From the NCBI GenBank assembly GCA_023267655.1, contig JAHFMV010000002.1:7228-71227 (forward strand): a stretch of DNA of 64,000 bases. Direction: 5' to 3'. The position numbers and the translations under genes were made by a program. Positions 32,351-46,549 of this stretch are shown here, one piece after another. The first letter of the stretch is position 1. Each line of letters begins with the position of its first letter. The stretch comes from Candidatus Kaiserbacteria bacterium. GTDB lineage: Bacteria; Patescibacteriota; Minisyncoccia; Phycocordibacterales; UBA2100. Under the pieces are notes generated by a model. That model was not told where the DNA came from, did no database searches, and worked only from the letters and a program-made list of their open reading frames with translations.

Positions 32351-32658
32351 TCCGCGGTGGCGCAACGGTAGCGCAGCTCGCTGTCGAAGGCAGCTTCTTA
32401 GAGGAATCTAAGAATGCAAACGAGGAGAATTGCTGGAAGCCCGAACTTGAAATAGTGGGTAATCAGCAGCCGAGCTCACGAAAGTGAGAAGGTTCAGAGA
32501 CTATCCGAAAGGAGTAGTCCCATGAGATAGGCACAGCCGCCATCTCACGGGACGAAGCACCTCGCACCCAGAACGGGTGATGATATAGTCCACCCCCTTT
32601 GGAAACATTGGGACAAAGTGTAACGAGTTGGTTGTAGGTTCGAATCCTACCCGCGGAG
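32351..32658 (+). tRNA. tRNA-Asn (anticodon GUU) interrupted by a group I intron in the anticodon loop.
   Basis: 5' exon 32351-32384: TCCGCGG acceptor, D-arm GCGC-AACGGTA-GCGC, anticodon stem GCTCG, loop CTGT. 3' exon 32621-32658: TAA, CGAGT, variable TGGTT, T-arm GTAGG-TTCGAAT-CCTAC, acceptor CCGCGGA, discriminator G. The spliced anticodon loop is CTGTTAA. Confidence 0.7.
32385..32620 (+). ncRNA. Group I self-splicing intron within tRNA-Asn.
   Basis: P-like AATTGCTGGAA, Q-like AATCAGCAGCC, R-like GGTTCAGAGACTA and S-like GATATAGTCC elements are present. The IGS GCAGC sits 6 nt into the intron and can pair with the exon end GCUGU. The intron ends in G. Confidence 0.7.
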
Positions 32659-40928: not shown

Positions 40929-41113
40929 GCATGGATTCCGTATCCCCTCTCTCCCCGCCAAAAAATCTGCAATTCAAAAAATCTTCGGCTCGAACCTGCA
41001 ACTCTACAATCAAAAAGTCTCCGGCACGGCGCATCCTCTCTACGCGGCGCTTCGCGCCGCGCTCCAAAATCCCGATTCGATAACCGGCGAATTCAAATCA
41101 ATCCAAGTCTGGG
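40929..41113. repeat. Inverted repeat IR1, copy 2.
   Basis: Reverse complement of 38444-38616 with a few mismatches. Read on the plus strand it continues into IR2 and would give an alternative recombinase C-terminus, ...QVWAQLYQIARTYFSKHDE*. Confidence 0.7.
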
Positions 41114-41382
41114 CTCAACTATACCAAATAGCTCGAACCTATTTTAGCAAACATGATGAGTGATCGGACACGCGCCGCGTGAGTGGTGACGTGTCCCAAC
41201 AAGGTACGCTCCGCGTCCGTGCCAACTCTGACGCCGCCCGCCGCAGCAAAGCTGCGGCAACCCCGAAAGAAACCGCTTCCCATGCATCTCTGTTCGGCGG
41301 GGGTGGGATGCGTATTGAAATGGAATGGGCGGTTTCTTTCGGGGTTCTGCCCTGTGGGCAGGGGGCGACAAACCCCTCAATC
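41113..41382. repeat. Inverted repeat IR2, copy A (about 250 bp), followed by a 14-bp-stem palindromic hairpin at 41383-41415.
   Basis: Identical 80-aa translations on opposite strands (41139..41384 minus and 44817..45059 plus) show this is a DNA inverted repeat. The hairpin is AAACCCCTCAATCA-CCCAG-TGATTGAGGGGTTT. Confidence 0.7.
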
Positions 41383-42066: not shown

Positions 42067-42855
42067 TCATCGTGTCAAGAGATTCTCCGATTCTACACTG
42101 AGTCTCTTCGCCGCACTTTCGCCGTTCACCACTAACTCCAGCCAACGATGAGTGCCGAAACCAGAACTTCCGACAACCCAACTTAGATTTTTGGGAGTGA
42201 CGTCCGCGAGTTGCTCGGAAAAATCGAGATCTGCGAAACGTGTCAGATTTCTTTCTCCTTTCAAGACAGTCGTCTTGCAGTTGCCGAAAGGATCGTCGAC
42301 ATACCAGACGGCAAGTGGTGCATCGGGCACGACATCTCGTACCTGCATCTTTTGCCCAGGCACTTTCCATCGTGCCGCAATCCACAGAGCAACGCGAGGC
42401 AAGAATTCATAACTCCTAAACTGCGTTGTAGTTACATTCTCTGCTTCAGAGGAAGAAATAAGACGTTTCTTCACCGCCCACTTCATCACCGTCGGAATAT
42501 CGAGAACATGCATTGTCTCTGCGAGTTGAAGTTTTTTTACAAGCGAGAGCGTTTGGCCAGCGACGGTTGACACGAGGAGTGTCTTACCGATGTAGATATA
42601 ACAAAACGGCGTGCCGTTCGGCCATTTTTCTCGCAAGCCATTACGAGGCGCCACGTTCGCAAGCAAAATTCCTTCGCCACCATTACAACGCGCTGCGTCA
42701 AGTGCGTCGACGATATGTCCCGCAGCTTCGAGGTCGTTACGCGCCCCAATGACTTGCGGCAAGAGACCGCAAAGAGACTGAACGCGAAGCGACTGTCGCC
42801 CTGCGGCGTTTCGGCAATCACAATCTGTCACAATGCCAAAGAACTGTATCTTCAT
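42067..42855 (-). CDS. DUF62 / SAM hydroxide adenosyltransferase-like protein (SAM hydrolase family), divergent N-terminus.
   Basis: C-terminal VWYVDDPFGNCKTTV matches the IDxFGNxxTN motif, and GSSGFGTHRWLELVVNGESAAKRL matches the DUF62 C-terminal domain. N-terminal motifs are weak. Confidence 0.45.
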   Translation of the reverse strand: MKIQFFGIVTDCDCRNAAGRQSLRVQSLCGLLPQVIGARNDLEAAGHIVDALDAARCNGGEGILLANVAPRNGLREKWPNGTPFCYIYIGKTLLVSTVAGQTLSLVKKLQLAETMHVLDIPTVMKWAVKKRLISSSEAENVTTTQFRSYEFLPRVALWIAARWKVPGQKMQVRDVVPDAPLAVWYVDDPFGNCKTTVLKGERNLTRFADLDFSEQLADVTPKNLSWVVGSSGFGTHRWLELVVNGESAAKRLSVESENLLTR

Positions 42856-42922
42856 GACCTATCCTTTCGGGCCACTTGCTGCCGAGGACCATTCCTCGAC
42901 AGGATAACGACCCCAAAAAAGA

Positions 42923-42950
42923 AAACCCTCCGCGTTTGCGGAGGGTTTTC
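42923..42950. terminator. Strong bidirectional rho-independent terminator AAAACCCTCCGC-GTTT-GCGGAGGGTTTT.
   Basis: A perfect 12-bp stem flanked by A- and T-tracts. It lies between the Met-rich leader ORF and the DUF62 gene start. Confidence 0.65.
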
Positions 42951-42976
42951 GTGAGATTCTTTTTTTCAAAATTACA

Positions 42977-43048
42977 TCATACGAAATGTTCCTCCGCGCG
43001 AAGGGTCATCATGGCCATCATCATTGCTGCGCGAAGATGCGTATGCAT
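42977..43048 (-). CDS. Candidate Met-codon-rich leader peptide MHTHLRAAMMMAMMTLRAEEHFV.
   Basis: 23 codons with 6 ATG codons clustered at positions 9-14, followed 27 nt later by the terminator. Codons 18-20 (GCGGAGG) duplicate the terminator 3' arm and could form an antiterminator. Confidence 0.35.
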   Translation of the reverse strand: MHTHLRAAMMMAMMTLRAEEHFV

Positions 43049-43165
43049 ATGTCGATGATATCGAGATTTGGAGAGCTGTCAATAGCGGGAGGGCGAACAA
43101 GGACTCTGCATGTTGAATAATGCTACCCTTATGGGTGTGGCGGGAACGTTGTACTATGAGCAGTC

Positions 43166-43678
43166 ATGATTAGAACGGCTAAAATAAGTGACATCGCTCG
43201 GCTTGTTGATATTGATTCTGCAGCCTATGGTTCGTACGGAGCTGACAGGGGCTACTTCGAAGAAAAGTTTGCTTCCGATAATGTGGGCATTCTTGTCGTC
43301 GAAGAAGCTGGGGATGTTAGCGGTTTTTGCGTTTTTGAGATTCTGAGATCGAATCAAATTCCGCCTGATTTTTGCGATTTGAAATTGAGAAAACCACTGG
43401 AAGATACGTGGACACATATTATTGCGTTTACAACGTCAACCAACTATATCGACCTTGAGTCGGATGGTCAGCTGGTTCGAGCCGTAGAAGAAAAAGCGAA
43501 AATCATGGGATCTGATATCTTTTGTGTCCCATTAAGTGTAGAACATCCTTTTGAAAAAAATGACGTCTTCGGCTTTTGGAAGAAGAATGGCTATGAGCGT
43601 GCGGGAACTATCAAGTGGAAAGCCAGTTCGAATGAACTCATTGAGTGTTATTTTTATTGCAAACTCGGCGCTAGATGA
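43166..43678 (+). CDS. GNAT-family N-acetyltransferase.
   Basis: About 170 aa with an acetyl-CoA binding-like core (VVEEAGDVSGFCVFE). Confidence 0.55.
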   Translation: MIRTAKISDIARLVDIDSAAYGSYGADRGYFEEKFASDNVGILVVEEAGDVSGFCVFEILRSNQIPPDFCDLKLRKPLEDTWTHIIAFTTSTNYIDLESDGQLVRAVEEKAKIMGSDIFCVPLSVEHPFEKNDVFGFWKKNGYERAGTIKWKASSNELIECYFYCKLGAR

Positions 43679-44799: not shown

Positions 44800-45076
44800 A
44801 ATCAAATACCGGGTAAATGATTGGTTCCCGCCGCCCCCTGCCCTTGGGCAGAACCCCGAAAGAAACCGCCCATTCCATTTCAATACGCATCCCACCCCCG
44901 CCGAACAGAGATGCATGGGAAGCGGTTTCTTTCGGGGTTGCCGCAGCTTTGCTGCGGCGGGCGGCGTCAGAGTTGGCACGGACGCGGAGCGTACCTTGTT
45001 GGGACACGTCACCACTCACGCGGCGCGTGTCCGATCACTCATCATGTTTGCTAAAATAGGTTCGAGCTATTTGGTA
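44800..45076. repeat. Inverted repeat IR2, copy B, with an inner-side 10-bp-stem palindrome at 44794-44824.
   Basis: Reverse complement of 41113-41382. The hairpin is GAACCAATCA-TTTACCCGGTATT-TGATTGGTTC. Confidence 0.7.
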
Positions 45077-45152
45077 TAGTTGAGCAGATTTCTTAGCTTT
45101 ATCTTGCAAGGCATTTTTAGGTCCCCTTGTTGGACGCTCGAACCTAAATTTG

Positions 45153-45540: not shown

Positions 45541-46543
45541 CCTAATTGCAACCGGTGCGCCTTCGCCAAAACACACGCCTCGGACTCACAAAGCCGAGGC
45601 GCTTTCTTTGTCGATCGTTGAGACGACGAACAATGTGTGCGAGTTCTGCTGGGGTGATCAGATTGAAGTCGAGTGTCTTCGGAAAGTACTGTCGGAGAAG
45701 TCCATTCGTATTCTCGTTGGTACCGCGCTCCCACGCATGGTACGGGTAGGCGAAGTACACGGTCATGCCGGTCTTCTTCTCAAGGCGCTCCCAATCGCTG
45801 AATTCGATGCCGTTGTCGAGTGTGAAGATCCTGCGTTTCTTCTTTGGAATATGTCGGAAGTGTTCTAGTGCGAGTGAGGTGAGAAGTCGCGACCTCATTT
45901 TGGGAAGCACGAACGCAATGAGGTATCCGCTCCTTCGGTCGACGAAAGAAACGATACGCACGCGCTTGTCTCTTCCCATTAAGGTATCTCCTTCCCAGTC
46001 TCCGATCCTTCCGCGTTTTTGGACGATCGCTGGACGTTCGTCAATGCGTCGTTTCTTCCCTTGTTCTCGGGCTTTTTCACGTATCTTCGTACCGCGCTTT
46101 CTGCGGTATTTGCCCTTTGATGATCGGAGGTACTGCTTCAGGTGTGGTGCACGTTCTTTGAGGTAGCGGTATATCGTACTTGCAACAAGTGACCCACCAC
46201 GCTTTCTCAGAACACCAGCAATCTGCTCGGGCGACTTGTGGAGCTTCAATTCTTTCGTCATGAACCGCAGCAGGGAGCCACGGATCACACGAATGCCCTG
46301 CATTGCATCGACACGCTTCATGTGCTTCCTTCGTCGCACCTCTCGCACGTCGTATCCGTTTCTTCCTCCGTAATCCTTCACGTGCCTCCCCAGTGAACTT
46401 TTGTCTTTGCCGATGGTCCGGGCAATCTCGCTCAGCGAATGACCAGCTCGCAGCATCCGTGCAATGCACGACCAATCCTCCTTCCCAATGTGTGTATGTG
46501 CCATCTTGGCACTGTGAATGCCTCGCGGGGGGTTGCAATTAGC
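45541..46543 (-). mobile_element. IS30-family insertion sequence.
   Basis: Terminal inverted repeats CCTAATTGCAACC (45541-45553) and GGTTGCAATTAGC (46531-46543), flanking a single IS30 transposase gene. Confidence 0.65.
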
Positions 46544-46549
46544 CTGCAA
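45542..46549 (-). CDS. IS30-family DDE transposase; the likely start is MAHTHIGKEDW, near 46504.
   Basis: An N-terminal HTH, plus the catalytic motifs DNGxEF and NTNGLLRQYFPK. Confidence 0.8.
   Translation of the reverse strand: MQANCNPPRGIHSAKMAHTHIGKEDWSCIARMLRAGHSLSEIARTIGKDKSSLGRHVKDYGGRNGYDVREVRRRKHMKRVDAMQGIRVIRGSLLRFMTKELKLHKSPEQIAGVLRKRGGSLVASTIYRYLKERAPHLKQYLRSSKGKYRRKRGTKIREKAREQGKKRRIDERPAIVQKRGRIGDWEGDTLMGRDKRVRIVSFVDRRSGYLIAFVLPKMRSRLLTSLALEHFRHIPKKKRRIFTLDNGIEFSDWERLEKKTGMTVYFAYPYHAWERGTNENTNGLLRQYFPKTLDFNLITPAELAHIVRRLNDRQRKRLGFVSPRRVFWRRRTGCN

Follow-up and report, generated by a model that had tools for sequence, protein, structure and literature searches.

The 64-kb window analyzed here (the whole 64,000-nucleotide stretch of Candidatus Kaiserbacteria contig JAHFMV010000002.1, to which all coordinates refer) carries, on its minus strand, a short open reading frame (ORF) rich in methionine codons and followed by an intrinsic terminator, upstream of a gene for a 262-residue protein with a DUF62 fold. 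We consider it likely that this element is a ribosome-mediated leader-peptide transcription attenuator, which senses methionine via charged elongator Met-tRNA and controls the gene for the DUF62-fold enzyme. This assignment is supported because four lines of evidence agree with it: the anatomy of the element, its conservation, the covariation of its pairing segments and a switch in thermodynamic models that depends on the position of the ribosome. We infer, in addition, the site at which transcription starts, that the leader is translated, that the ribosome and polymerase are coupled and that the enzyme has the chemistry of its structural relatives.

The whole leader element lies in the 310-nucleotide gap between the gene at 43166..43678 (plus strand) and the gene at 42855..42067 (minus strand). 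Read on the minus strand, the order in the gap is promoter, 6 nucleotides, leader ATG, Met-codon cluster, terminator and gene. With transcript nucleotides numbered from the A of the leader ATG as 1, the features are as follows.

43077..43082, minus strand: −35 hexamer TTGACA, from a consensus scan; a TTGACA-like hexamer is also present in the close relatives L001, L005 and L009 and in many other loci.
43055..43060, minus strand: −10 hexamer TATCAT, 6 nucleotides before the leader ATG, with the A of the ATG as predicted +1.
43048..42977, minus strand: leader ORF of 23 codons plus stop, MHTHLRAAMMMAMMTLRAEEHFV.
43007..43024, minus strand: Met-codon cluster, codons 9–14, ATG ATG ATG GCC ATG ATG (MMMAMM), the proposed sensing codons.
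43029..43037, minus strand: region 1, UCUUCGCGC, putative anti-antiterminator, in a 9-bp helix (nucleotides 12–20 with 50–58) of the minimum-free-energy fold of the full leader.
42981..42999, minus strand: region 2, putative antiterminator, pairing with the terminator 5′ arm and predicted to form in the nascent transcript unless a ribosome is on the stop codon.
42950..42915, minus strand: intrinsic terminator with a perfect 13-bp stem, loop AAAC and T6, −23.4 kcal/mol.
42881..42900, minus strand: hairpin GUCGAGGA-AUGG-UCCUCGGC in the read-through 5′ untranslated region, from the minimum-free-energy fold, kept with changes in L001 and L005.
42067..42855, minus strand: regulated gene, 262 amino acids, divergent DUF62 / S-adenosyl-L-methionine (SAM) hydroxide adenosyltransferase (SAM hydrolase/halogenase) fold, assigned by Pfam, profile comparison, AlphaFold2 and Foldseek.

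The codons of the leader ORF are ATG CAT ACG CAT CTT CGC GCA GCA ATG ATG ATG GCC ATG ATG ACC CTT CGC GCG GAG GAA CAT TTC GTA TGA, and it is the sole ORF, in any frame of the window, with at least four Met codons in six. A preliminary description of this DNA had reported a 23-codon ORF with six consecutive Met codons. The ORF was recovered both by direct reading and in the ORF list; the cluster, however, has five Met codons in six positions, as codon 12 is GCC (Ala). The perfect-stem terminator placed after the leader by the same description is present, with a stem of 13 bp and not 12 (G42950–C42938 paired with G42933–C42921, forming the hairpin GAAAACCCUCCGC-AAAC-GCGGAGGGUUUUC, with T6 at 42920–42915) and beginning 26 nucleotides past the leader stop and not 27. 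It does lie shortly upstream of the DUF62-type gene, with 65 nucleotides, and not 67, from the end of the stem to the ATG (42855), or 59 from the end of the U6. The word GCGGAGG at codons 18–20, said to be identical to the terminator 3′ arm, was found so on direct reading; the word shared by the leader and the start of that arm extends to 8 nucleotides, CGCGGAGG.

In the antiterminator, GCGGAGG (42997–42991) would pair with CCUCCGC, and UUUCGU (42986–42981) with ACGAAA (42952–42947). The predicted sigma-70-type promoter, TTGACA-16-TATCAT (43082–43055), matches the consensus at 11 of 12 positions; neither it nor its leaderless geometry is mentioned in the preliminary description. The consensus scan found no separate promoter between the terminator and the enzyme gene in the window, and the enzyme gene is proposed to be a monocistronic target. 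A bidirectional terminator, or one that serves the upstream gene, was ruled out: the upstream neighbor is divergent from the leader and the terminator therefore ends no upstream gene.

The mechanism we propose would begin with transcription starting at or beside the A of the leader AUG, giving a leaderless mRNA. When methionine is plentiful, the ribosome would pass the MMMAMM cluster and reach the UGA stop, where it would cover nucleotides ~55–82 and mask the antiterminator GCGGAGG...UUUCGU. The 13-bp terminator would then form, and the polymerase would stop in the U tract and release an RNA of ~130 nucleotides. When Met-tRNA is scarce, the ribosome would be held up at the cluster's first Met codons, covering region 1 and leaving region 2 free to capture the terminator 5′ arm as soon as this is transcribed; no terminator would form and the polymerase would read through into the enzyme gene. 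The enzyme induced in this way would release methionine and adenosine from SAM. All characterized enzymes of this fold displace L-methionine from SAM, and therefore induction under methionine shortage would be expected to release methionine; the proposed direction of control (on when methionine is scarce) matches an enzyme whose characterized relatives liberate L-methionine from SAM.

The leader was compared with those of the close relatives L001, L005 and L009 (P0002, the closest homolog of the enzyme at 82% identity, was left out of this comparison). The leaders of L001 (MHPHLRAVMMMEMMTLRAEDYFV) and L005 (MHPHLRAAMMMEMMTLRAEECFV) have the same layout as that in the window, as does that of L009 (MNRSSAMMMSMMRSRRETL), in which the enzyme is 63% identical. 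L009 has another terminator, GGCUCCC-GCAA-GGGAGCU, and a matching change in its leader, CUCCCGCAGGGAG. Close homologs of the gene product are named as Patescibacteria proteins, and the related loci belong to metagenome-assembled genomes of the ultra-small Patescibacteria/Candidate Phyla Radiation (CPR) bacteria; the closest relatives derive from the Hainich samples.

A wider set was composed of 80 species-level Patescibacteria loci with homologs, whose enzymes are 38–46% identical to that of the window, except for L010 (74%), which shares its lineage with L005. An ORF of at most 60 amino acids with at least three Met codons in six, within 300 nucleotides upstream on the sense strand, is present in 36 of 79 loci, compared with 1/79 for the antisense control and 5/79 and 2/79 for two downstream controls. 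Raising the threshold to at least four Met codons in six left 30/79 loci upstream and none in any of the three controls, and a Met ORF combined with a terminator was found in 32/80 loci versus 0 and 1 for controls. The 353 kb scanned on both strands gave 29 strict hits, all of them directly upstream of and co-oriented with the enzyme gene family, with none elsewhere. Leader-positive records include Komeili-, Wildermuth-, Yanofsky-, Kaiser-, Falkow-, Magasanik-, Lipton- and Moraniibacteria. The scripted scans overlooked at least one more leader, which was seen by eye in L072, a Nomurabacteria record. The Levy-, Woese- and Microgenomates-type records in the 80-locus set were leader-negative. Many records with the Patescibacteria-type gene and leader, L011, L015 and L016 among them, bear the title "uncultured Gammaproteobacteria" or "Pseudomonadales", which are probably wrong taxonomic labels.

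The genes on either side show no conservation (75 and 79 neighbors carry 79 and 100 different Pfam families, respectively), so that the leader travels with the enzyme gene alone. The 170-residue divergent ORF was considered as a counterpart of the GNAT neighbor of L001, and this was ruled out by a lack of similarity and of any Pfam hit. A gene for methionyl-tRNA synthetase adjoins the DUF62-like gene in 3 of ~154 neighboring ORFs, a weak hint of a link to methionine/SAM metabolism. One such gene is at 1292–2737 of L005, with an EamA-family transporter gene beside it, and the synthetase also occurs next to the gene in L010 and as two downstream neighbors in alignment A3.

Among leader-negative homologs, an Rfam search of 40 loci identified no riboswitch or T-box. 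Four loci (L020, L043, L048, and L052) have neither a Met ORF nor an Rfam family and show a terminator-like hairpin with a T run ~20–60 nucleotides before the homolog start; these may carry a different leader. A metagenome-wide scan with the pattern ATGATGATGBNNATGATGAC was aimed at leaders ahead of other genes. The matches listed were mostly coding or microsatellite noise and held a single bona fide extra leader, in L146 (9677–9795; MQKTGAMMMAMMTSRAEDFCLHS), which has a matching antiterminator and terminator. Its surroundings include a shikimate-kinase gene upstream and, ~300 nucleotides downstream, pyrF (orotidine monophosphate decarboxylase) followed by a phosphoribosyltransferase gene. This leader may be a remnant or mark a second target.

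In an alignment of 35 leaders anchored at the last Met codon, conservation is confined to the Met positions and to a Thr directly after them, present in 18/35 leaders and encoded by ACC, ACT or ACG. The leaders are 14–56 codons long, and where the Met cluster is interrupted, a whole, freely varying codon (for A, E, S, G, R, V, K or N) stands there each time. In close relatives, changes outside of the Met codons and pairing segments are mostly non-synonymous. As judged from these sequences, the pattern of conservation is that expected of a sensory leader ORF and not of a functional peptide.

A strong terminator lies 10–46 nucleotides past the leader stop in the 35 loci. For a register-free duplex test, the stretch that begins at the last Met codon and ends shortly after the stop was paired with the terminator 5′ arm of its own locus and with those of other loci; this test was relied on because register shifts blur column-based counts. 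Duplexes with the own arm had a mean of −12.35 kcal/mol versus −8.75 kcal/mol with the arms of other loci, the former mean being reached in none of 10,000 permutations, and the median z against shuffled sequences was −2.5. The value for the window was −15.1 kcal/mol (z = −4.1). The pairing segment starts 7–15 nucleotides past the last Met codon in 33/35 loci, and 20 and 22 nucleotides past it in the other two. By this comparison of sequences, terminator and antiterminator segment covary from lineage to lineage. Column-based counts on a MAFFT alignment gave 70.7% of cells paired versus 64.7% in shuffles, with 0/500 shuffles as high. In folds of the leader alone the antiterminator segment usually base-pairs with nucleotides inside the Met cluster, ahead of it or immediately behind it, which is where a stalled ribosome would lie. 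For the window, the full transcript folds into helix 1:2 and the terminator (−44.7 kcal/mol), and in the nascent transcript that does not yet include the 3′ arm the antiterminator forms and fails only with a ribosome on the stop codon.

The effect of ribosome position was modeled by imposing a 28-nucleotide footprint as unpaired and deriving the probability of the terminator, P(terminator), from equilibrium thermodynamic folding. For the window, P(terminator) was 0.01, 0.00, and 0.03 with Met9, Met10, and Met11, respectively, in the A site and 1.00 with the ribosome at the stop codon. Across the 35 loci, the median was 0.01 for the most effective Met stall and 0.95 for a ribosome at the stop codon, and a switch (P under 0.5 for a stall on at least one Met codon, P over 0.5 with the ribosome at the stop) was predicted in 25/35 loci. 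The boundary between antiterminating and terminating stalls lies at Met codons 1–3 of the cluster across loci, and nascent-transcript folds agree with the ribosome-position model.

The preliminary description had looked to conservation of the small ORF in relatives, and this is seen in L001, L005, L009 and ~30 further Patescibacteria species with enzymes of only 40–47% identity; across these leaders the Met codons are kept and other residues drift. Its alternative pairing proved thermodynamically competitive in the antiterminator energetics, in dependence on the modeled ribosome position, and the leader segment it took for an antiterminator is the one that covaries with the terminator. Its overall proposal of a methionine-sensing attenuator was supported by all of the computational refutation checks that were run. 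The link it drew to an enzyme that would release methionine from SAM is one of fold similarity.

The position of the promoter suggests a leaderless mode of translation, with the +1 of the mRNA on the A of the AUG. The distance from the promoter-like −10 to the leader ATG is exactly 6 nucleotides in 12/34 loci, including the window, L001, L005 and L009, and 6–13 nucleotides in 26/34 loci when the best promoter-like site of each locus is used. At no locus does the leader ATG have a Shine-Dalgarno sequence ahead of it; this absence is uninformative, as most main genes in the genomes concerned also have none.

The product of the regulated gene matches Pfam SAM_HAT_C at 26.2 bits, barely over the cutoff of 25.5. 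The family profile matches PH0463 (PDB) with E = 0.024 in the C-terminal domain only, and the C-terminal motifs D-x-F-G-N and G-S...L-E of the enzyme subfamily align with PH0463. The AlphaFold2 model of the protein (predicted local distance difference test score, pLDDT, 91.5; predicted template modeling score, pTM, 0.90) provides a full-length structural match to the two-domain SAM hydrolase/halogenase fold. In the Foldseek search against the PDB, matches 1–27 all have the SAM hydrolase/chlorinase/fluorinase fold [E 4.6e-11 to 4.9e-7; template modeling (TM) scores 0.54–0.68]. The protein shares this two-domain architecture over its full length with the DUF62 / SAM hydroxide adenosyltransferases, or (R)-SAM hydrolases (PH0463, MJ1651), and the SAM-dependent chlorinases/fluorinases (SalL, ClA1/2). 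Characterized family members are described as hydrolyzing SAM to adenosine and methionine as part of a SAM salvage pathway (bioRxiv 10.1101/2025.08.29.672840). The enzyme represents a distinct, Patescibacteria-wide subfamily, whose putative activity is that of its structural relatives.

Several observations weigh against the attenuator assignment. In the ribosome model, stalls at Met13 and Met14 of the window gave P(terminator) values of 0.95 and 0.98, so that termination is predicted there, and stalls at any earlier codon also give antitermination. The free RNA of the window had a P(terminator) of only 0.58, the nascent transcript forms the antiterminator even when no ribosome is present, which makes the basal state ambiguous in the models, and in 10/35 loci the switch was not seen. 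Column-based covariation is modest and blurred by register shifts, the terminator itself being 81% paired only at slide +1. Approximately half of the homologs have no leader, and the L146 leader has no DUF62-like gene. The transcription start site is placed by a consensus scan only, and we know of no demonstration of transcription-translation coupling in Patescibacteria. Methionine starvation would also limit the charging of initiator tRNA and reduce translation of the leader. Lastly, the protein has no match to SAM_HAT_N or to any other Pfam model in its N-terminal half, and its identity to characterized DUF62-fold enzymes is only 13–18%. Because of this, that the protein releases methionine from SAM is something we infer from its modeled structure.

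Three other explanations were weighed. The same RNA switch could respond to a signal other than Met-tRNA charging if MMMxMM(T) caused ligand-dependent arrest in the ribosome exit tunnel, possibly together with SAM or methionine. The Thr after the last Met could hint at such selection on the peptide, and a SAM-dependent nascent-peptide arrest is described for Arabidopsis CGS1 (PMC3083191). However, the peptide beyond Met and Thr varies in sequence, in length and in its x residue, and the Thr has an explanation at the RNA level, as the ACC/ACU codon starts a local hairpin that mimics the terminator arm. Moreover, codon-level sensing in the trp, his and leu leaders is characteristically marked by a run of one rare amino acid. 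We regard arrest by the peptide as unlikely. A role for the AUG repeats independent of translation, either as a protein site in the style of the TRAP triplet repeats or as one element of an aptamer through which a metabolite controls the terminator, is in our view quite improbable. The AUG triplets are indeed the only strongly conserved sequence and the leaders have no Shine-Dalgarno sequence, a feature that is uninformative for the reason given above. Yet the cluster is always in frame with an ATG 6–13 nucleotides past the −10 and with a stop beside the antiterminator, and the interrupting unit is always a whole codon. In addition, the part of the leader that precedes the terminator does not exceed shuffled sequence in stability (z = 0.17), and no Rfam family matches.

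The promoter, ORF and terminator could also be read as a self-contained small gene or small RNA unrelated to the enzyme, whose Met-rich peptide or ~130-nucleotide RNA acts in trans. Having its own promoter and terminator, and one copy (L146) that occurs apart from the enzyme gene, the element would suit this explanation, and released attenuator RNAs and peptides are reported to be capable of acting in trans in Sinorhizobium (PMC6614838, PMC7298713). Against it, all 29 strict hits are upstream of and co-oriented with a single gene family whose other neighbors are not conserved, the consensus scan showed no separate promoter between terminator and gene in the window, and a covarying antiterminator would be purposeless in a stand-alone gene. 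We consider independence from the enzyme very improbable, while a role in trans in addition to attenuation could exist. All three explanations are opposed by the in-frame geometry of start and stop, by a peptide and structure that are not conserved outside the Met codons, by the covariation of the antiterminator and by the restriction of the leader to one gene family.

The element has the structural hallmarks of known leader-peptide attenuators: an ORF with a codon cluster, an intrinsic terminator, a mutually exclusive antiterminator and, in the thermodynamic model, a stall-dependent switch. As in the enterobacterial attenuators (trpL, hisL, leuL, thrL, pheL, and ilvL), a short ORF that clusters codons for the amino acid to be sensed is combined with helices 1:2 (anti-antiterminator), 2:3 (antiterminator) and 3:4 (terminator with U tract), among which the position of the ribosome decides, and the gene is proposed to be on when the amino acid is scarce. 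Unlike them, it has Met as its codon, occurs in a Patescibacteria/CPR host, is apparently leaderless and precedes a single gene of the SAM-cleaving type and not a biosynthetic operon. Rfam leader families scored below their gathering thresholds (rnk_pseudo, 32.1 versus 55; His_leader, RF00514, 27.1 versus 49; Phe_leader, RF01859, 25.6 versus 55), with alignments driven mostly by the terminator, and in the whole-window scan neither Leu_leader (RF00512), the rnk leaders nor other Rfam leader families had a match at gathering score at the leader. There was also no Rfam hit to a SAM riboswitch or T-box at E ≤ 10 in 42700–43300, nor was such a family detected in the window as a whole. The S-box and other SAM riboswitches and the Met T-box leaders resemble the element in having a 5′ leader with a terminator/antiterminator platform in the same metabolic area; however, the element is unrelated to them, and they sense SAM or uncharged tRNA directly through structured RNA and have no ORF.

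A closer comparison is offered by the polycysteine leaderless short ORFs of mycobacteria, at which, as reported, stalled ribosomes remodel the downstream RNA and raise downstream expression when cysteine is limiting (Canestrari et al., bioRxiv 10.1101/834739). The leader here similarly is a predicted leaderless short ORF with a codon cluster for one sulfur amino acid. As that preprint describes it, the mycobacterial system acts through occlusion of the ribosome-binding site, in contrast to the intrinsic terminator 65 nucleotides before the start codon in the window; it also senses cysteine, belongs to another phylum and has a six-locus regulon, whereas the Met leader was seen with one target family. 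We found neither a Met-codon attenuator nor any attenuator of CPR bacteria in the literature searched, which left most subscription journals outside and makes an earlier description possible. Ribosome-mediated attenuation itself is already known, and its methionine specificity would be the new feature.

Other features were noted at and around the leader. In the minimum-free-energy fold, the U tract at 42915–42920 pairs with the purine-rich AAAGGA (42862–42867) just before the start codon of the enzyme gene; this pairing and the 42881–42900 hairpin may constitute a second, translational layer of control. A mini-ORF, AUG AUG UAA (42972–42980), overlaps the leader stop in another frame and is identical in L001 and L005. 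A perfect 240-nucleotide inverted repeat (41113–41352 and 44846–45085) brackets a 3.5-kb segment with a ybaK-like gene, the DUF62-like gene and its leader, the 170-residue ORF (which has no Pfam hit) and an ORF with a DeoR helix-turn-helix, and an IS30-like transposase (45542–46549, minus strand) is found just outside the repeat. The bracketed segment could be invertible or mobile, or an assembly artifact. The window also has a group I intron hit at 32374–32612 (plus strand; 62.2 bits, over the Rfam gathering threshold), and L052 likewise has one near its homolog.

Leader-peptide attenuation is textbook material for Trp, His, Leu, Thr, Phe and Ile/Val, and a related mechanism has recently been shown for cysteine. 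Control by methionine has been attributed to SAM riboswitches, T-boxes and protein regulators, a gap that could be closed by a conserved attenuator with Met codons. To our knowledge, almost nothing is known of gene regulation in CPR/Patescibacteria, for which the element would represent a concrete cis-regulatory mechanism that implies ribosome-polymerase coupling and leaderless initiation. The leader would also be a functional clue for a widespread, unannotated enzyme subfamily, as wiring to methionine shortage fits recovery of methionine from SAM, and its compactness (~135 nucleotides) makes it a possible methionine-responsive genetic part. More tentatively, and with considerable doubt, we suggest that it may be the founding example of a methionine-sensing, leaderless-translated attenuator that is conserved in several Patescibacteria lineages and controls one divergent SAM-cleaving enzyme; these reduced symbionts might then couple transcription to translation, monitor the charging of Met-tRNA and use SAM, whether made or imported, as a reserve of methionine and adenosine that is tapped on demand.

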